This document shows positions 6,121 through 22,759 of a stretch of 24,000 nt of DNA, in pieces; position 1 is the stretch's first letter; each line of letters opens with the position of its first letter. Under the pieces are notes generated by a model, which did not search any database, was not told the origin of the DNA, and saw only the letters and a list, made by a program, of their open reading frames with translations. The DNA comes from Candidatus Subterrananammoxibius californiae. Lineage in GTDB: Bacteria; Planctomycetota; Brocadiia; Brocadiales; Subterrananammoxibiaceae. The stretch is from assembly GCA_030586555.1 (NCBI GenBank), contig JAURAC010000003.1, positions 84,073 to 108,072 of the forward strand, given 5' to 3'. The position numbers and the translations under genes are program-made.

Positions 6121-6600
6121 ATGGAAGTGCTTGATAAGAAATTTGTATCGTTAAACAATCTGATGACCAGGTTAAGGAATAAGAAGTGTTCACCAGGCAG
6201 TTTGTTGCTTTTGTTTCCCCACTGCATACAATATTCTAAATGCAAGCAGAATATAAATGCAGATTTAGCAGAATGCAGACGCTGTGGCAAATGCAAGGTC
6301 AAGGATTTGTTGGAGCTTTCTGAAGAATACGGGGTTAGTATTGCTATAGCAAATGGAGGCAGGATTGCGCTCCAGAGGGTTATGGCTGACGAAGTAAAAG
6401 GCGTAATAGCAATTGCCTGTGAGAAAGAACTCCGCTTAGGAATTATGGCAGCCCTTTCTAAGAGGGTACTTGGAGTTGCCAATCTAAGACCTCATGGATA
6501 TTGTGTGGATACCGATGTCGTGCTTGACGACGTAAGAAAGGCTATTGAGCAGTTTTTAGAACGACCCCCTGTTTCAAACAGCGAATCCCCCTCGACTTAA
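6121..6600 (+). CDS. DUF116-family Cys-rich protein (soluble domain only)
   Basis: The motif pattern LLLFPHCIQ..C....C(RR)CGKC....GG....GVIAIACEKEL matches my recollection of DUF116/COG1852. It lacks the N-terminal membrane segment usually seen in this family. The 3' end overlaps the convergent gene by 27 nt. Confidence 0.55.
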   Translation: MEVLDKKFVSLNNLMTRLRNKKCSPGSLLLLFPHCIQYSKCKQNINADLAECRRCGKCKVKDLLELSEEYGVSIAIANGGRIALQRVMADEVKGVIAIACEKELRLGIMAALSKRVLGVANLRPHGYCVDTDVVLDDVRKAIEQFLERPPVSNSESPST

Positions 6601-8136
6601 AGGTAGAATATCTTTGTTAATCAGTGGGCAATTTTTTGCCCTAACATCAGGAGGAATAGGAAGGCCCAAAAACCCACCTTCTTCTCGATTATAAAGCTCG
6701 TATATTAGGAAATCTTTAGTCTCTTCTCTTTGTTCGTTTGTTAAAATACCCCCGTCCTTTTTCGAAGGCTCTTTTATCAAAATACCCCCATTCTCCTTCG
6801 AAAGTACTTTTGTTAAACTACCTTCGTTCTTCTCTGAAAGCTCTTTATCTATTTGAAGTACCCACCTCGTGCCATGAGCAAAAGGCATTTTAGGTGAAAA
6901 ATCTTTTGAAAATGTAAACCCCCCTCCATCGCAATAACACTCTCTAACAAATTGTTTAATCCTCTCTATTTTATCTTTCTCAATTTTCAAACCTAAAAGG
7001 TTCATAATGCGGAGGGCAAAATAGGTACCGTTTGTTGAGGCTATTCTTCCCTCAGAAGCACCATATCCACCCCGTTGTTCATCCCAGCATCTATCTATAA
7101 ATTTTAAAAATTTAGTCTTTTTCTCATCATTAAAGAACTTGTTGCGTAATTTAGTGAATTCTTCCTTATAATAAGGTTTATCGCCCATTAACGATAACGC
7201 AAAAGATGTGGCGGACATGGTCGGTTTTTTTTGGGAAGGGCTTGGGGCAAAGCCTAAGGCAGAGCCATCGACGTCGATAGACTTTTCACAGTTTTCTATA
7301 TAGTTTTCAATTTCAGACTTTGGGATTAGTTCAAATAATTTGTTCTCCCTATTCAATGACCAAAATAGTCTACTTAATAAGTACGTTACGCATATTCCGT
7401 CAGTCGTATTATTTCCTGGTTGGTCGTAAACATAATGAATATTATCCTTCAATTCTACACAACTTCTAATAAACTCGTTTAACTTAGTATCTCTCCACTC
7501 AATTATCTTTTTAAGGAACTCATTTGTGTTTCCATTATTAATTAATTTTTCCTTTATTGGTATGCCAAGTGCATGTTTTATCACCTCTATTGCATTAGAA
7601 GTTCCATAAATACTGACTTTCTCTTCTTTCCCGTTAGGGGTAGGGAACGGAACAATGCTATAACCTCCTTGTTTCTCATCAAAGCACCTATTTACAAAGT
7701 TGAGGATCCTATCCTGATTATGTTTAATAAACCCTCCGTCTTTTAATAAAGAGAGGCTTACTAAAGCGGCACGAGTAGTATCTATACTTCTTTGTAACCA
7801 ACAATACATGTAATCCCTGAAGCCTGGCTCTAATCCGATATCACTACTTCTTAGCAAAACAAGCATAGCGTTACCCACGTCTCGCTTGGCTTCTTCTCTT
7901 AGTTCTGCGTCTTTAATAGAAAAGATGCATGGTTTAATGTAGGAGGGGAGTACAGGAGGCTGTAGCTGTAAAGGTGGCATTTGAAGCGCTTTTTCTACTG
8001 GTGGATCTCCTCTCATAGACCAATAAATAAATATCCCACCTAAAAAGATAAGGCTGGAAAAGAATAGGATATTCATGAATAGTTCATTTATGCTCACTAT
8101 CCCTCCAACGCTTATCCCAGAAAACCATCTTCTCAA
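6574..8136 (-). CDS. Membrane-anchored protein with prenyltransferase / squalene-cyclase-type (alpha/alpha toroid) repeats; function unknown
   Basis: There is an N-terminal TM segment (NILFFSSLIFLGGIFIYWS). A motif recurs four times: ILNFVNRCFDEKQGGYS, LKFIDRCWDEQRGGYGA, IKQFVRECYCDGGGFTF and DFLIYELYNREEGGFLG. An alternative start at the ATG at 8076 (MNILFF...) would remove the 53-nt overlap with the upstream gene. Confidence 0.6.
   Translation of the reverse strand: MRRWFSGISVGGIVSINELFMNILFFSSLIFLGGIFIYWSMRGDPPVEKALQMPPLQLQPPVLPSYIKPCIFSIKDAELREEAKRDVGNAMLVLLRSSDIGLEPGFRDYMYCWLQRSIDTTRAALVSLSLLKDGGFIKHNQDRILNFVNRCFDEKQGGYSIVPFPTPNGKEEKVSIYGTSNAIEVIKHALGIPIKEKLINNGNTNEFLKKIIEWRDTKLNEFIRSCVELKDNIHYVYDQPGNNTTDGICVTYLLSRLFWSLNRENKLFELIPKSEIENYIENCEKSIDVDGSALGFAPSPSQKKPTMSATSFALSLMGDKPYYKEEFTKLRNKFFNDEKKTKFLKFIDRCWDEQRGGYGASEGRIASTNGTYFALRIMNLLGLKIEKDKIERIKQFVRECYCDGGGFTFSKDFSPKMPFAHGTRWVLQIDKELSEKNEGSLTKVLSKENGGILIKEPSKKDGGILTNEQREETKDFLIYELYNREEGGFLGLPIPPDVRAKNCPLINKDILPLSRGGFAV
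6743..6804. repeat. 36-nt tandem duplication inside the toroid-repeat gene
   Basis: AAAATACCCCCGTCCTTTTTCGAAGG (6743-6768) recurs as AAAATACCCCCATTCTCCTTCGAAAG (6779-6804). The two copies encode SKENGGILIKEP and SKKDGGILTNEQ. Confidence 0.7.
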
Positions 8137-8506
8137 ACGCTATTACCCAGAAGAAAATAATAAGTATTATAAACAGGAATGCAGCTGGTTCGGTGGGTTT
8201 AAATGGTTTGAAAAGGTCAAGAGCTCTCTCGAAAAAGCTAATCAAAAGGACAACGAAAAATGAGAAAAATAGAGGAATGCTATATTTTTTGATTCTGTAC
8301 CAGAAACCTCCCTTCCGGTTTTGGCATACGTTTGCAAAACTCTGGGCAAGTAAGACTACCGCTATTCCACACAAGAAAAGGAGTGCAATTGCATATCTGA
8401 GCGGAAAGTCTGGTGATAAAGATTCTTTGGGCGAAGGTTTTTCAAGAATGATATACGTTAACCAGACTGCAATAAATGCACCGAAGAAATGATTAATTGC
8501 ACCCAC
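8084..8506 (-). CDS. Small integral membrane protein (4 predicted TM helices), function unknown
   Basis: 140-aa ORF with a GTG start at 8506. A perfect SD precedes it (AAAGGAGG, then a 6-nt spacer, read on the minus strand). There are four hydrophobic stretches. It is the first gene of the operon divergent from mraZ. Confidence 0.6.
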   Translation of the reverse strand: MGAINHFFGAFIAVWLTYIILEKPSPKESLSPDFPLRYAIALLFLCGIAVVLLAQSFANVCQNRKGGFWYRIKKYSIPLFFSFFVVLLISFFERALDLFKPFKPTEPAAFLFIILIIFFWVIAFEKMVFWDKRWRDSEHK

Positions 8507-8593
8507 TAATTTCCTCCTTTTTCAGCTCTATTAAAAGTTATTTAGTAACCATGTACTTAAAGAAGTTAAGAAGTATAGAGTTGAACTATTTTA

Positions 8594-8617
8594 TCCCACC
8601 CCCCCCACTTCATCCCA
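8594..8617 (-). promoter_or_regulatory. Putative MraZ operator, mirror copy: three TGGGN boxes on the minus strand
   Basis: The minus strand reads TGGGA-tgaag-TGGGG-gggg-TGGGA, with boxes at 8617-8613, 8607-8603 and 8598-8594. It lies about 90-110 nt upstream of the GTG at 8506. Confidence 0.5.
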
Positions 8618-8632
8618 CATTGTAACACTTAA

Positions 8633-8659
8633 TTTATACCTTTTTTTCGTCATTGTCAA
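8633..8659 (-). promoter_or_regulatory. Putative sigma70-type promoter for the divergent operon
   Basis: The minus strand reads TTGACA (8659-8654), a 15-nt spacer, then TATAAA (8638-8633). The spacer is short. The module is colinear with the mraZ promoter module. Confidence 0.45.
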
Positions 8660-8718
8660 GAAATTTTTTATAGGCGTTTTCACAAATTTTTTTAAAAATC
8701 CACCACGTTCTAACACTA

Positions 8719-8768
8719 CAATATATTGATGTAATATCTTTTTCTAAGTCAATATATAGTTGATGTAA
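8719..8768 (+). repeat. Direct repeat in the AT-rich divergent spacer
   Basis: CAATATATTGATGTAA (8719-8734) and CAATATATAGTTGATGTAA (8750-8768). Confidence 0.6.
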
Positions 8769-8811
8769 AAATATACAAAAAAATTTTCTAAAAATAATAA
8801 TAAAATTTTTC

Positions 8812-8839
8812 TTGACAAAGGAGAAAAAAGGTTTATAAA
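8812..8839 (+). promoter_or_regulatory. Putative Pmra-like promoter of the dcw cluster
   Basis: TTGACA (8812-8817), a 16-nt spacer, then TATAAA (8834-8839), 42 nt upstream of the mraZ ATG. Confidence 0.55.
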
Positions 8840-8855
8840 GGCAAGTGTTATATTG

Positions 8856-8880
8856 TGGCAAAAAGTGGGGAGAAATGGGG
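8856..8880 (+). promoter_or_regulatory. Putative MraZ operator: three TGGNN boxes at exact 10-bp phasing
   Basis: TGGCA (8856), TGGGG (8866) and TGGGG (8876), each followed by a 5-nt spacer. The last box abuts the mraZ ATG at 8881. This matches the TGGGN direct-repeat operator described for E. coli MraZ. Confidence 0.6.
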
Positions 8881-9312
8881 ATGCTCACGGGAACCTTCTG
8901 TCACGCCTTAGACGAAAAAAACCGTTTATCCATTCCATCCAAATGGAGAAAAGACCTCGAAAAGGATGGAAAGGAAGTATACGTCACTCCTGGTTTGGAT
9001 CAATGTCTTTTCATATTGTCCTCTCTTCAGTTTGAAGAACTCGCACAAAAGGTCAAACAGCTTCCTTTTACAAAGGAAAATGTGCGGTCCTTTTTGCGGC
9101 TCTTTTTTTCCAAAGCTTCTCCGCCCCTTGAATTTGACAAACAGGGCAGAATCTTAATACCTCAGTTTTTAAAAGACCATGCCGAGATTGATAAGGAAAT
9201 AGTCCTCGTTGGTGTATACGACAGGATTGAAGCATGGAACCCAAAACTCTGGGATAGTTTCAACTCACAAAAGGAGGGGTCTTTTGAAAAGATTGCAGAA
9301 ACCCTCTTTTAA
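8881..9312 (+). CDS. mraZ: Transcriptional regulator MraZ
   Basis: MLTGTFCHALDEKNRLSIPSKWRKDL plus a second half-repeat FDKQGRILIPQFLKDH, giving the duplicated DxxxR MraZ/SpoVT-AbrB fold. The track start at 8845 is an upstream extension. Confidence 0.9.
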   Translation: MLTGTFCHALDEKNRLSIPSKWRKDLEKDGKEVYVTPGLDQCLFILSSLQFEELAQKVKQLPFTKENVRSFLRLFFSKASPPLEFDKQGRILIPQFLKDHAEIDKEIVLVGVYDRIEAWNPKLWDSFNSQKEGSFEKIAETLF

Positions 9313-12419: not shown

Positions 12420-12454
12420 AATGGGATGTGTCCCTATTAAAGGGAGGCGAAAAA

Positions 12455-12886
12455 ATGTGTTACATTGATACAGTAAAAGAACTGATTTCACTTACCAATA
12501 CATACAATCTGGTAGAAATTGAGATACACCAGGATATGACACGGATACGCATTAAAAAGAATGGTGCAGGCCGGCTAATAAGTAATCAGGATTGTAGAGA
12601 CGCAATGCCTTGCGTCTCTACAGAAGAGTTTCCAACAGAAAGCTGTGTAATTACCTCTCCTATGGTCGGCACTTTTTATAGAGCTCTCAGTCCAGGGTCA
12701 AAGCCTTTTATTGATATCGGCTCAGAAGTTAATTCTGAAAAGGTAGTGGGTGTTATTGAAACGATGAAAATAATAAATGAGGTTAGTGCAGGCGTAACAG
12801 GGAGGGTAGTTGAGGTCTTTGTTGAGGATGGCGAGGCTGTAGAGTTCGGTCAGCCGCTCTTTCGTGTACAACAAACACACACGTGA
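12455..12886 (+). CDS. accB: Biotin carboxyl carrier protein-like (biotinyl/lipoyl domain) protein
   Basis: SPMVGTFYRA...VGVIETMKIINEVSAGVTGRVVEVFVEDGEAVEFGQPLFRV is a BCCP biotinyl domain with ETMK in place of the usual EAMK. The N-terminus resembles AccB (LVEIEIHQDMTRIRIKK). A GGGAGG SD lies 7 nt before the ATG at 12455. Confidence 0.7.
   Translation: MCYIDTVKELISLTNTYNLVEIEIHQDMTRIRIKKNGAGRLISNQDCRDAMPCVSTEEFPTESCVITSPMVGTFYRALSPGSKPFIDIGSEVNSEKVVGVIETMKIINEVSAGVTGRVVEVFVEDGEAVEFGQPLFRVQQTHT
12593..12622. repeat. GTAG-family palindrome inside the accB-like gene
   Basis: TGTAGAGACGCAA-tgcc-TTGCGTCTCTACA with 13-bp perfect arms. It is read as CRDAMPCVST in the linker between the N-terminal and biotinyl domains. 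Confidence 0.85.
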
Positions 12887-19922: not shown

Positions 19923-21494
19923 GTGCGCTTGGCAACTTTAGATGACCTGTCTGCGTGTGGACACGCACAAGCAGATAAGAATTTATCACCAACGAAACGA
20001 CTCTCAATTACAATTCCATCCTTTCATGTTAAAAATGTATATCTGATAGGCATTGGCGGTACAGGCATGAGTGGGTTAGCCAGGTTATTACTGACAAAAG
20101 GATATAAGGTTTCTGGTTCTGACACACAGCCCTCTCCGACTACCTTTGCACTTGAAAAACTCGGCGCAAGAATCACCAACAAACAAGATGGCAATGGGGT
20201 AAACCCCGAAACGGAACTGGTTATCATTTCTGCTGCAATTACCGAGGATAACCCAGACCTGATGGCTGCCCGCAGTTTCAGCCTGAAAGTGATTAAATAC
20301 TCACAATTCCTGGGTTCTTTAATGAAAGAAAAAAAGGGCATTGCTATAAGCGGCACCCACGGGAAAACAACCACTACCAGTATGGTTTCTACAGTTCTTA
20401 AATATGCTGGTATGGACCCATCATTTGTAATTGGCGGTGTTGTTCCAGAGATTGGGGGGAGTTCGCATTATGGCAAAGGGAATTTTTTTGTCGCAGAGGC
20501 ATGTGAGTACGATAAGTCTTTTCTTTATCTTTCTCCTCATATCGGAGTAATTACTAATATAGAAGAGGATCATCTTGATTATTACAAAAACATCGAAGGC
20601 GTAGTAAATGCCTTTGCCGAGTTTGCCACCTCAATTCCAGAGGATGGTTTGTTAGTAGTAAACAATCAGGACGATAATATAAAGAAGGCTATAAAGGGGG
20701 CTCACTGTAATATAGAAACCTACTCAATGGATGACCCTTTTGCAAACTGGACTGCCACCCGACTGAGGTGGGATAACACATTCGAGGTTTTTCACAATGG
20801 CAGCCCGTTTGGTGAATTCGGACTCAGGATTCCCGGTGTTCATAATGTCATGAATGCACTTGCAACCATCGCTACGTGCACGTTTGCCGGCGTGGAAAGG
20901 CAATCTATCATGGAAGGGTTGGCAACCTTTAATGGAGCACAACGAAGATTCCAGATTATTGACAGCGTAAACGGAATTACCATTGTAGATGACTATGGCC
21001 ATCATCCAACGGAAATTCGCGCCACCCTCAGGGCTGCAAGAGAGAGGTTTCCAGAAGGTAGGATATGGTGCGTATTCCAGCCACATCAATATAGCAGGAC
21101 AAAGTTACTGCTAAAAGATTTTGCCCGCTCCTTTGGTGATGCCGATAAGGTCGTTCTGACGGACATCTTCTCTGCACGGGATAGCGAGGAAGATAAAGCA
21201 GCAATAAACTCGTGCATTCTAACAAACGAAGCCCGCTTGCAGGGCGCTGATGCCCTGTATATTCCTCATATTGATGATGTGCCAGACCTCTTGTGCAGCG
21301 GTCTTATGCCTGATGATGTTGTTATTACCATGGGTGCTGGCGATGTCTGGAAGGTGTCTCGTAGCTTAATATCAAAATTACACGAGCATAAATCAAAAGC
21401 GTCAGGGGACAGGGGTCAAGAGTCAAGAGTTTGGACTCATAACCCAAGACTCATGACACAGGACTTAAATGGAATATTACAACCTGCCTTATAA
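19923..21494 (+). CDS. murC: UDP-N-acetylmuramate--L-alanine ligase, with N- and C-terminal extensions
   Basis: GIGGTGMSGLA and GTHGKTTTTS motifs. The GTG start lies 9 nt after AAGGAGG. The last ~30 aa are read through a heptamer array and overlap murB by 26 nt. Confidence 0.9.
   Translation: MRLATLDDLSACGHAQADKNLSPTKRLSITIPSFHVKNVYLIGIGGTGMSGLARLLLTKGYKVSGSDTQPSPTTFALEKLGARITNKQDGNGVNPETELVIISAAITEDNPDLMAARSFSLKVIKYSQFLGSLMKEKKGIAISGTHGKTTTTSMVSTVLKYAGMDPSFVIGGVVPEIGGSSHYGKGNFFVAEACEYDKSFLYLSPHIGVITNIEEDHLDYYKNIEGVVNAFAEFATSIPEDGLLVVNNQDDNIKKAIKGAHCNIETYSMDDPFANWTATRLRWDNTFEVFHNGSPFGEFGLRIPGVHNVMNALATIATCTFAGVERQSIMEGLATFNGAQRRFQIIDSVNGITIVDDYGHHPTEIRATLRAARERFPEGRIWCVFQPHQYSRTKLLLKDFARSFGDADKVVLTDIFSARDSEEDKAAINSCILTNEARLQGADALYIPHIDDVPDLLCSGLMPDDVVITMGAGDVWKVSRSLISKLHEHKSKASGDRGQESRVWTHNPRLMTQDLNGILQPAL
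21401..21463. repeat. Heptanucleotide array inside the murC 3' end, upstream of murB
   Basis: GTCAGGG GACAGGG GTCAAGA GTCAAGA GTTTGGA CTCATAA CCCAAGA CTCATGA CACAGGA, with an imperfect dyad. Confidence 0.65.
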
Positions 21495-22350
21495 TGAATT
21501 AATTAAACGTAATGAACCACTGAGTCGCTATACTACGTTTGGGATAGGTGGGACGGCTGAAATATTTGCAGAGCCTCGAAACAGCGCGGAGCTTAAGGAG
21601 TTTATAGAGTTCGGCAGGGATAGCAGGCTGCCAATAAACGTTATAGGTAAAGGAAGCAATGTCCTTGTAAATGATAGCGGCGTTAGAGGTATAGTCATCT
21701 ATCTTGCAAGAAACGGTTTTAAACGTGTAAAAAGAGAAAATTCTTCAATAATTGCAGGGGCTGGGGTTAGCCTTCCATTGCTTGTCAACAAGAGTGTGGG
21801 GTGGGGATTGGGTGGTTTAGAGGTGTTAACGGGGATTCCCGGAACAGTCGGAGGCGCTGTTGCCTCAAACGCTGGAGGCAAGTACGGCACAATAAGTGAA
21901 TGCATAATGTCTGTAACAACCATAGACATTGATGGTAGAACTCACCAGTACAACAGAGAGGATATTGACTTCGGATATAGAAAAAATTGCTTTCTTAACC
22001 AAATAATCATCGAGGCAATGTTAAAACTAAAGGAGTGTAACAGAGTAGCGTTGCTGAAGCGCTCCAGGGAAATTCTTCAAGAGAAGAATCTGCGTCAACC
22101 GCTTTCGGCAAAGAGCGCAGGGTGTGTTTTTAAAAATCCCGAGGGCTATTGCGCCGGTGCATTGATTGAACAGGCTGGATTAAAGGGGCAAAGGGTTGGC
22201 GGGGCAATAGTATCAGAAAAACATGCAAATTTTATTATTAATACAGGCAATGCCACCGCAGCCAACGTGCTTGAACTTGTTGACGCGATAAAGGGCGATG
22301 TTTTGCGGAAATTCAACATCTTATTAGAATTAGAAATTCAGGTATGGTAA
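21469..22350 (+). CDS. murB: UDP-N-acetylenolpyruvoylglucosamine reductase
   Basis: The LSRYTTFGIGGTAE FAD-binding N-terminus, GGLEVLTGIPGTVGGAV, and SAGCVFKNP...GGAIVSEKHANFIIN. Confidence 0.9.
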   Translation: MEYYNLPYNELIKRNEPLSRYTTFGIGGTAEIFAEPRNSAELKEFIEFGRDSRLPINVIGKGSNVLVNDSGVRGIVIYLARNGFKRVKRENSSIIAGAGVSLPLLVNKSVGWGLGGLEVLTGIPGTVGGAVASNAGGKYGTISECIMSVTTIDIDGRTHQYNREDIDFGYRKNCFLNQIIIEAMLKLKECNRVALLKRSREILQEKNLRQPLSAKSAGCVFKNPEGYCAGALIEQAGLKGQRVGGAIVSEKHANFIINTGNATAANVLELVDAIKGDVLRKFNILLELEIQVW

Positions 22351-22531
22351 TCGTCGCTCGTGACCCGTCGCCCGTGACTCGAGCAACGAAGAAAGGAGGC
22401 TACCAATGTATAAGTCAACGAATGCGGCAGTTCTAATGGATGAAATATCCTCGGAAAGCGAGGTATCCATCCATTCAGGCGCTACCATAAGCGAGGCGCC
22501 CATAGGAGCAGAACACAATATTATCTTCACC
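22123..22531 (+). repeat. Tandem duplication, unit 1 (murB 3' end + spacer + ddl-like 5' fragment)
   Basis: It aligns codon for codon with 22532-22921 apart from the spacer. The murB-derived parts are offset by 409 nt and the ddl-derived parts by 390 nt. Confidence 0.85.
22351..22392. repeat. Heptanucleotide array between murB and the chimeric ORF
   Basis: TCGTCGC TCGTGAC CCGTCGC CCGTGAC TCGAGCA ACGAAGA. It is absent from the equivalent spacer of duplication unit 2 (22760-22795). Confidence 0.6.
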
Positions 22532-22759
22532 TGTATTTTTAAAAACCCACCTGGCTATTACGCCGGTGCATTGATTGAACAGGCTGGATTAAAGGGGCAA
22601 AGGGTTGGCGGGGCAATGGTATCAGAAGAATATGCAAATTTCATTATAGATACAGGGAATGCCACTGTAACCGATGTGCTTGAACTTGTTGACATGGTAA
22701 GATGCGCCGTTCTGCGGAAATTCAATATCTTATTAGAATTAGAAATTCAGGTATGGTAA
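22406..22759 (+). CDS. Chimeric ORF: Ddl N-terminal 42 codons fused in frame to the MurB C-terminal 75 codons. A duplication relic that may be a pseudogene or a novel small protein
   Basis: MYKSTNAAVLMDEISSESEVSIHSGATISEAPIGAEHNIIFT aligns with Ddl residues 1-42. CIFKNPPGYYAGALIEQAGLKGQRVGGAMVSEEYANFIIDTGNATVTDVLELVDMVRCAVLRKFNILLELEIQVW aligns with MurB residues 219-293. The frame is intact, and it has its own AAAGGAGG SD at the same spacing as ddl. Confidence 0.6.
   Translation: MYKSTNAAVLMDEISSESEVSIHSGATISEAPIGAEHNIIFTCIFKNPPGYYAGALIEQAGLKGQRVGGAMVSEEYANFIIDTGNATVTDVLELVDMVRCAVLRKFNILLELEIQVW

Follow-up and report, generated by a model that had tools for sequence, protein, structure and literature searches.

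The native and mirrored cassettes upstream of mraZ

We analysed a stretch of 24,000 nt (the window) from Candidatus Subterrananammoxibius californiae, in which the gene mraZ is preceded by its own promoter and operator and, on the opposite strand, by a second element of very similar architecture, which we call the mirror. The gene mraZ (8881 to 9312, plus strand) encodes a protein of 143 aa that was recognized by Pfam MraZ (1e-30) and by TIGR00242 (128.9 bits, cut-off 98). It opens a dcw cluster (genes for division and the cell wall) with the order mraZ-rsmH-ftsL-ftsI-BCCP-like (biotinyl-domain)-murE-murF-mraY-ftsW-murG-murC-murB-ddl. The mirror faces away from this cluster, towards two minus-strand genes for predicted membrane proteins of 140 and 507 aa, beyond which lies the gene of a DUF116 protein.

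The native promoter, Pmra (8812 to 8839, plus strand), was identified in the sequence and by a motif scan. It consists of the -35 box TTGACA (8812 to 8817), a 16-nt spacer and the -10 box TATAAA (8834 to 8839), and eight relatives share this CTTGACA...TATAA architecture in front of their mraZ genes. It is followed by the native MraZ-type operator (8845 to 8878, plus strand), in which the cores GTGT (8845), GTGG (8855), GTGG (8865) and ATGG (8875) are repeated with an exact 10-nt period. The operator abuts the ATG of mraZ at 8881, and its box 3 (GTGGGGAG) is also the Shine-Dalgarno sequence of the gene.

The mirror cassette occupies the minus strand from 8660 to 8594. Judged by its sequence, it is a diverged homologue of the mraZ promoter of this lineage together with the MraZ-type operator, being colinear with the native cassette at 8811 to 8880. 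In a MAFFT alignment of plus 8790-8900 with minus 8680-8575 the two strands are colinear with only two small gaps. The best inverted local alignment within the intergenic region (8507 to 8880) reached a score of 64, while 1000 shuffles gave 19.7±2.9 with a maximum of 31 (z ~15). A repeat search splits this similarity at the indels into two inverted pairs, I1 (8642-8693 / 8778-8829) and I2 (8603-8630 / 8843-8870, 82% complementary).

The predicted mirror promoter (8631 to 8659, minus strand) has its -35 box TTGACA at 8659-8654. The -10 box would be either TAAATT at 8636-8631, after a 17-nt spacer, or TATAAA at 8638-8633, after a 15-nt spacer. The first combination has 10 of 12 matches in a promoter scan and the 16-18-nt spacing of sigma-70-type promoters; the spacer of the second is poor. 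The likeness to the native cassette includes the region between the hexamers, where sigma-70 recognition imposes no constraint; in relatives, the Pmra spacers are homologous to this region of the mirror (AATGACGAAAAAAAGG). The -35 boxes of the two outward-facing promoters are approximately 150 bp apart.

Downstream of the mirror promoter, and oriented with its transcription, lies the mirror MraZ-type operator (8596 to 8628, minus strand) with the cores GTGT (8628-8625), GTGG (8618-8615), GTGG (8608-8605) and GTGG (8599-8596). Its layout GTGT-N6-GTGG-N6-GTGG comprises three direct GTG(G/T) boxes with 6-nt spacers, of which MraZ operators have at least three, and is followed by N5 and a further GTGG, so that the periods are 10, 10 and 9 nt. 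A G8 run (8606-8599) is found between boxes 3 and 4, and the fourth box is 1 nt out of phase. Box 1 begins 2 nt past TAAATT or 4 nt past TATAAA. When the two copies are compared by counting, 15 of the 16 core positions match but only 10 of the 18 positions in the inter-box spacers. What the mirror has lost is GGAGAA, the Shine-Dalgarno portion of box 3 in the native operator, for which there is no need at this place. Both box arrays lie within approximately 250 bp, and according to the motif scan the native and the mirror sites are the only two places in the 24 kb at which an intergenic, perfect TTGACA is combined with a good -10 box and a phased array.

A sequence-only reading of this DNA had quoted the two strings, which are found exactly where it placed them, and its description of a colinear duplicate with small gaps agrees with the alignments above. 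It had further assigned three TGGNN boxes at about 10-bp phasing and the sequence TATAAA to both copies. Each copy has four boxes, better described as GTG(G/T) cores, and the last period of the mirror is 9 nt; the native promoter is TTGACA-16-TATAAA, and the mirror can be read as TTGACA-17-TAAATT or as TTGACA-15-TATAAA.

From 8979 down to 5838, the window is 100% identical to four contigs from other sequencing runs (L087-L090). Since these independent contigs are identical to it across both cassettes and across both junctions of the accessory segment described below, the mirror arrangement is not a misassembly. All four are short-read contigs with the insertion and end at the same base inside mraZ (window position 8979), which suggests a branch in the assembly graph caused by co-existing strain variants. 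As separate observations on the mirror operator, its minus strand at 8596-8617 (GGGATGAAGTGGGGGGGGTGGG) fits a G3-N7-G3-N1-G3-N2-G3 quadruplex motif. The leader RNA as well as the non-template strand would carry this motif, which has no counterpart in the native operator. The G8 homopolymer could be prone to slippage; G8 is present in all four independent assemblies.

In E. coli, TGGGN repeats in the mra promoter are the MraZ-binding sequence. The published consensus comprises three GTG(G/T) boxes with 6-nt spacers and is matched by the native operator of the window (PMC12957436). In Mycoplasma genitalium transcription starts inside box 1, repression drops stepwise when boxes are mutated, and binding and repression were graded but not lost with two to three boxes (PMC12957436). 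In B. subtilis the boxes are needed for repression, and the triple repeat occurs genome-wide at Pmra only (bioRxiv 10.1101/2022.02.09.479790). The oligomers of MraZ are octamers or dodecamers, but a single operator is touched by just four of the subunits; if the boxes are moved apart by a longer spacer, oligomerisation aids binding (PMC12957436). The MraZ protein of the window keeps both DXXXR motifs (DEKNR 11-15 and DKQGR 87-91). When it is aligned with the structures from M. genitalium and M. pneumoniae (PDB matches 6e-23), its DNA-contact residues K13, R15 and R91 are seen to be conserved, R91 being the equivalent of R86 of M. genitalium; K13, R15 and R86 in the M. genitalium numbering are the basic residues shown to contact the boxes (PMC12957436).

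The closest MraZ proteins (58-97% identity) are encoded on Brocadiales/Brocadiia-like metagenome contigs. We compared the mraZ upstream regions of eight relatives (L001, L082, L083, L084/85, L094/95, L096, L097 and L098); of L086 we compared the last 30 nt before mraZ. In all eight, CTTGACA is followed by an A-rich stretch, by TATAA and by three to five GTG(G/T) boxes that have an exact 10-nt period and end at the ATG, while the inter-box bases vary. A position matrix was built from the 31 boxes of the eight relatives, with the window excluded, and used to scan both strands of the 24 kb (48 kb in total). Among three-box sites the mirror ranked first with 31.8 bits and the native operator second with 27.7 bits; the next site scored 17.1 bits.

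As a baseline we used 78 distant mraZ loci from a MraZ search of genome contigs. These are mostly from Firmicutes and Mollicutes, with at most 48% identity, and are of no use for close comparison. A strict triple array is present on the coding strand within 1 kb upstream of mraZ at 53 of them. An opposite-strand triple array was found at none of the 78 loci, nor was there any in 515 kb of flanking DNA. Its presence upstream of mraZ in 53 of 78 cases and its absence from the flanks make the phased array a specific signature, of which a second, inverted copy is unusual. A metagenome scan with a 23-base cassette pattern did not recover the known relatives and returned a single match (L093, 2159-2221), which is a chance match inside a coding region and is unrelated to the mirror. 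With its genes for two paralogous capsid-like proteins, L093 resembles a small single-stranded DNA virus of the microvirus type.

The accessory segment and its neighbourhood

The mirror is part of a strain-specific segment of 2086 nt (6591 to 8676) that consists of the mirror cassette, a leader and the two membrane protein genes. Its limits were set by the BLAST break-points against L001, L082, L083 and L084 and by the junction sequences: homology between the window and its relatives ends at 6590/6591 and resumes at 8676/8677. The segment stands in place of approximately 80 nt of the ancestral spacer between DUF116 and mraZ and alters the last residues of DUF116, which now ends with ...ESPST and a stop versus ...ESPSSKTTT and a stop in L082. 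The -35 box of the mirror is located 17 nt inside the right junction, that is, at the promoter-proximal edge. The GC content of the segment is 37.1% versus approximately 43% in the flanking genes, which is weak evidence of an atypical composition. At the junctions we found no mobility genes, integrase, transposase, terminal repeats or target-site duplication, and neither of the two open reading frames (ORFs) is recombinase-like.

The ancestral order def-fmt-DUF116, a spacer of approximately 260-480 nt and mraZ, without divergent genes, is found in L082, L084/85, L094/95, L097 and L098. No mirror is present in L083 within 453 nt upstream of mraZ, and no such divergent operon in L096 within its 381 nt upstream of mraZ. 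In L001, the flanks of which are 95-96% identical to those of the window and the MraZ protein of which is identical, the segment is absent and a DUF4258/MqsA-like toxin-antitoxin pair is found at the same spot. The segment 6591-8676 is thus an accessory, strain-level feature that varies by presence and absence between conserved flanking genes. Because L001 carries the toxin-antitoxin pair there, the spacer between DUF116 and mraZ is a hot spot for strain-specific cargo. In L001 (1448-2806) this pair is itself flanked by a duplication of approximately 100 nt of the ancestral spacer (~1770-1868 and ~2757-2855) and by two hairpin elements of approximately 70 nt (~1895-1967 and ~2592-2667; GAAAAGGGGACGCTTCTATTT...AAATAGAAGCGTCCCCTTTT).

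The leader (8507 to 8595, minus strand) extends from the mirror operator to the ORF of 140 aa, so that the mirror element lies approximately 120 nt upstream of a strong ribosome-binding site and start (AGGAGG 6 nt before GTG at 8506). It has no Rfam match and no stable fold (z-score 0.17), and its similarity to the intergenic DNA of relatives or to the 5' coding sequence of mraZ is not significant. The ORF of 140 aa (8084 to 8506, minus strand) encodes a predicted four-helix membrane protein, for which a word-indexed search returned only the self-match. It overlaps by 14 nt with the gene of the 507-aa protein (6574 to 8097, minus strand), which carries a membrane helix at its N terminus and a predicted alpha/alpha toroid of the prenyltransferase-beta type (PF00432, 42.6 bits, cut-off 26.5). 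In a Foldseek search a moderate-confidence AlphaFold2 model of this protein (pLDDT 61) matched RabGGTase beta with an E value of 7e-7 and a TM(target) of 0.62-0.64, and it superposes also on FTase beta. PADLOC defence models did not match either gene, and NCBIfam returned nothing informative. At its 3' end the ORF of 507 aa runs antisense into the 3' end of DUF116 (6574-6600), giving a convergent overlap of 27 nt with no terminator between the two genes.

For the 507-aa protein, two close homologues were found by the word-indexed search and 69 distant ones by an exhaustive search. In L092, a homologue of the 140-aa protein (32% identity, E 7e-16) precedes a homologue of the toroid protein (39% identity); this pair lies in another context, and its promoter is an ordinary, box-free TTGACA-17-TATAAT. 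A promoter of this kind, again free of boxes, also precedes the toroid gene of L091, which stands alone. Since these homologues have box-free promoters, MraZ-type control would be a property of this insertion and not of the module.

On the other side of the mirror, the ancestral region upstream of Pmra (8677 to 8811, plus strand) is common to all relatives and includes a conserved dyad, CAATATATTGA (8718-8729) and TCAATATATAG (8749-8760), with the consensus CAATATATTGA(TG)...(A/G)TCAATATATAG. Its arms are approximately 20 nt apart and lie approximately 50-95 nt upstream of the -35 box of Pmra. The dyad is kept in L082, L083, L084, L098, L001 and L096 while the spacer around it varies; possibly a second regulator of the dcw promoter, acting as a dimer, has its operator there. 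Within the dcw cluster, an ORF of 152 aa with a biotinyl/lipoyl domain (BCCP-like, 12428-12886) is located between ftsI and murE. The gene follows ftsI also in L086 and probably in L082, and is thus a conserved, unusual dcw member in this lineage. Directly after the full-length murB (21469-22350), an ORF of 117 aa (22406-22759) matches the C-terminal domain of MurB only and looks like a partial tandem duplication. No murD was seen in the interval from mraY to ftsW, and none of ftsQ, ftsA and ftsZ was seen within the window.

Origin and possible function of the mirror

Identity of the native cassette is 99% with its counterpart in L082 and 87% with the one in L001. Between the native cassette and the mirror it is only 66-72%, and between the mirror and any Pmra cassette 53-78%. 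Because the flanks differ from those of L001 by only 4-5%, this divergence makes it implausible that the resident promoter was copied recently or after the split of the two strains. More likely Pmra was duplicated in inverted orientation at this variable locus at an earlier time, or the mirror was imported with the segment. Arrival of the cassette together with the segment remains one candidate. In the other, the mirror with its cargo would be an older variant of the locus that was exchanged through the conserved flanks, and it is L096 that points in this direction.

L096, the native MraZ of which is 58% identical to that of the window, has a mirrored cassette at the equivalent position, and this cassette runs into a second, divergent mraZ start (MIVGSFEHTVDEDEK). 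The mirrored Pmra cassette was thus seen twice, in the window in front of an accessory envelope module and in L096 in front of a second mraZ. The second start (L096 1-135, minus strand) shows a 6-nt tandem duplication of GATGAA. L096 has a length of 1.4 kb at 2.3x coverage, ends after 16 codons of the second mraZ, and is a possible chimera. At the matching place the window reads 'ATAAAATAGT' versus 'ATGATAGT' in L096. Based on this, the mirror of the window could be the remnant of an inverted duplication of Pmra and mraZ in which the coding part was replaced. Behind the mirror, no significant coding remnant of mraZ was detected (z at most 2.6; tblastn E 2.1), and this idea is backed only by a coincidence of 5 nt, ATAGT, with the start of the second mraZ in L096. 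A sister relationship between the two mirrors is not demonstrable, as they are 71% identical and no closer to each other than to ordinary Pmra cassettes. We also rejected the idea that the mirror is a decayed ancestral spacer: a resemblance seen by eye at 8583-8600 ('GAACTATTTT', 'TATCCCA') was not significant in shuffle-controlled alignments (z at most 2.3).

With moderate confidence, we propose that the mirror is a working promoter of the two-gene module and that MraZ binds the boxes across its start and represses it in parallel with Pmra. As a sigma-70-type promoter, the mirror would drive a translationally coupled membrane module composed of the four-helix protein of 140 aa and the anchored toroid protein of 507 aa. 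Since the arrays start 2-5 nt after the -10 box, the four GTG(G/T) boxes would cover the transcription start, which is predicted near 8623, just as in M. genitalium and in the native promoter. The adjacent gene would supply the MraZ, which would bind cooperatively and repress the mirror promoter together with Pmra; with boxes and DNA-contact residues both intact, such co-repression is plausible. The accessory genes would probably be switched together with the cell-wall and division operon, and the module would thereby be a strain-level addition to the MraZ regulon. Promoter activity, the start near 8623, binding and repression by MraZ, and the origin of the copy are all what we infer from the DNA sequence. 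The conservation of the GTGG cores with drift in the spacers fits a constraint on the cores, and it would be equally expected of a copy from another mraZ promoter.

The sequence-only reading had gone further and suggested that the neighbouring operon belongs to the MraZ and division regulon, which is supported in part. This proposal gains from the homologous cassette that faces the divergent genes, from the retained K13, R15 and R91, and from a box score that matches the native one. As a resident and conserved member of the regulon, however, the operon has to be given up, since 6591-8676 is strain-specific and absent wherever the upstream region of relatives is readable; the view of the mirror as a fresh duplicate of the window's own promoter fails at its divergence. 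The expectation that related genomes keep the mirrored cassette is borne out by L096 only, most relatives being without it. This absence does not strictly count as a refutation, because the operon is absent as well and the gene order is not conserved. Judging by these comparisons, the mirror is an accessory, strain-level rewiring and not a conserved feature of the regulon.

Several points weigh against regulation of the module by MraZ. The conservation of the boxes could be inherited from a donor mraZ promoter and not selected at the present site. Promoter strength and the cooperativity of MraZ could be impaired, because box 4 is 1 nt out of phase and the hexamer spacing is not the native 16 nt. 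Homologues of the gene pair elsewhere use box-free promoters, so that MraZ control is not intrinsic to the module, and the mirror element is absent in nearly all relatives, including L001 with its 95-96% identical flanks. Moreover, our search for further copies of the cassette covers the 24-kb window. The same observations can be read in favour of an evolutionary by-product, that is, a relic of an inverted duplication of Pmra and the mraZ start which now merely gives constitutive transcription to the genes that came to lie behind it, with inherited boxes that are bound weakly or not at all and without meaningful coupling to division. Such a history would agree with L096, in which the mirrored cassette runs straight to the second mraZ start, with the 'ATAAAATAGT' of the window at the position of the 'ATGATAGT' of L096, with the altered phase and spacing, with the strain-specific occurrence of the mirror and its operon, and with the box-free promoters of homologous gene pairs. 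A neutral relic at approximately 30% divergence is nevertheless expected to have lost some box cores, whereas three mirror boxes are in perfect register, all four cores fit the consensus and the matrix score is above that of the native operator. In addition, two to three boxes sufficed for graded binding and repression in M. genitalium (PMC12957436), and behind the mirror no significant trace of mraZ was found. We consider a mere by-product unlikely, although it is the alternative to be taken most seriously.

Another possibility is that the inverted array, approximately 250 bp away, is mainly an auxiliary operator for the autoregulation of MraZ, by bridging through the octamer or dodecamer ring or by titration, with control of the accessory genes being secondary. 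That only four subunits of the oligomer touch one operator and that oligomerisation helps across a longer box spacer (PMC12957436) is compatible with this, as are the distance of the arrays and the same twin layout in L096 in front of a different downstream gene. However, L082 and L001 control a nearly identical dcw operon without a second array, such an array is present at none of the 78 distant loci, and looping by MraZ is not reported in PMC12957436 or bioRxiv 10.1101/2022.02.09.479790. We regard an auxiliary operator as very improbable. That two strong promoters resemble each other by chance, or that the arrangement is an artefact of assembly (chimeric or due to an inverted repeat), is effectively refuted. 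Both cassettes are AT-rich promoter regions, and the strong promoters in L091 and L092 also begin with CTTGACA, but the alignment z-score is approximately 15, and the shared AAGTGTTA and the phased GTGG arrays are found nowhere else in the window. The four independent assemblies are identical across both junctions and both cassettes, and an artefact of collapsed or duplicated reads is impossible because the copies differ at approximately 30% of positions.

If the mirror is indeed repressed by MraZ, as we favour, then a natural copy of a promoter and operator on unrelated genes would represent a clean and testable expansion of the MraZ regulon, and the cassette is small enough for reporters in E. 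coli. The case also shows how an accessory module inserted at a hot spot can come under regulation through a borrowed core promoter. Its practical importance is limited, since the feature is strain-specific and stems from a metagenome-assembled genome of an uncultured organism. It is tempting to speculate further, although we hold this to be improbable, that the Pmra promoter-operator is a recurrently duplicated cassette in this FtsZ-poor planctomycete lineage. Twin inverted operators approximately 250 bp apart would then be bridged by one MraZ ring, forming a cooperative, bidirectional switch that locks envelope accessory genes or a paralogous regulator to the division and cell-wall programme.

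Comparison with known systems

The product of the larger cargo gene resembles the toroids of the PF00432 family (prenyltransferase beta and squalene-cyclase type), as it exceeds the gathering score and its model superposes on RabGGTase and FTase beta. It differs from them by an identity of only approximately 13% and by its N-terminal membrane anchor, and the confidence of its model is only moderate (pLDDT 61). It has no gene for an alpha-subunit partner beside it; its partner is instead the small four-helix membrane protein.

The segment shares with genomic islets and cassette hot spots a site that is either empty (the DUF116-mraZ spacer of L082, L084, L094, L097 and L098) or filled with different cargo, the toxin-antitoxin pair in L001 and the 140/507-aa module in the window, and also a lower GC content. 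It differs in that no integrase, transposase, terminal repeats or target-site duplication was found at its junctions, and its cargo brings along, or is fused to, a copy of the neighbouring core promoter.

The arrangement also recalls divergent promoters that share one repressor, since two outward-facing sigma-70-type promoters are each followed by an operator for a regulator that is encoded on one side. In the window, however, there is no shared central operator; each promoter has a complete duplicated cassette, and the operators are located on the outer, downstream sides.

A further known system comprises the MraZ-binding repeats of E. coli, B. subtilis and Mycoplasma. Like these, the arrays of the window consist of direct GTG(G/T)/TGGG cores with a 10-bp period, just downstream of or overlapping the -10 box and the predicted start, and oriented along transcription. 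The cognate MraZ has both DXXXR motifs and the equivalents of K13, R15 and R86, so that cooperative repression by several subunits is expected (PMC12957436; bioRxiv 10.1101/2022.02.09.479790). What differs in the mirror is that it heads an unrelated accessory module of two genes on the opposite strand and not mraZ and the dcw cluster, and that the period of its last box is 9 nt instead of 10. In PMC12957436 and bioRxiv 10.1101/2022.02.09.479790, a phased array of MraZ boxes is documented only at the promoter of the regulator itself. The MraZ-type operator and promoter are of a known kind, but a complete, inverted second copy heading accessory genes outside the dcw cluster is undescribed: B. 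subtilis has the triple repeat nowhere but at Pmra, and the window, unlike the 78 distant loci, has a second, inverted array.

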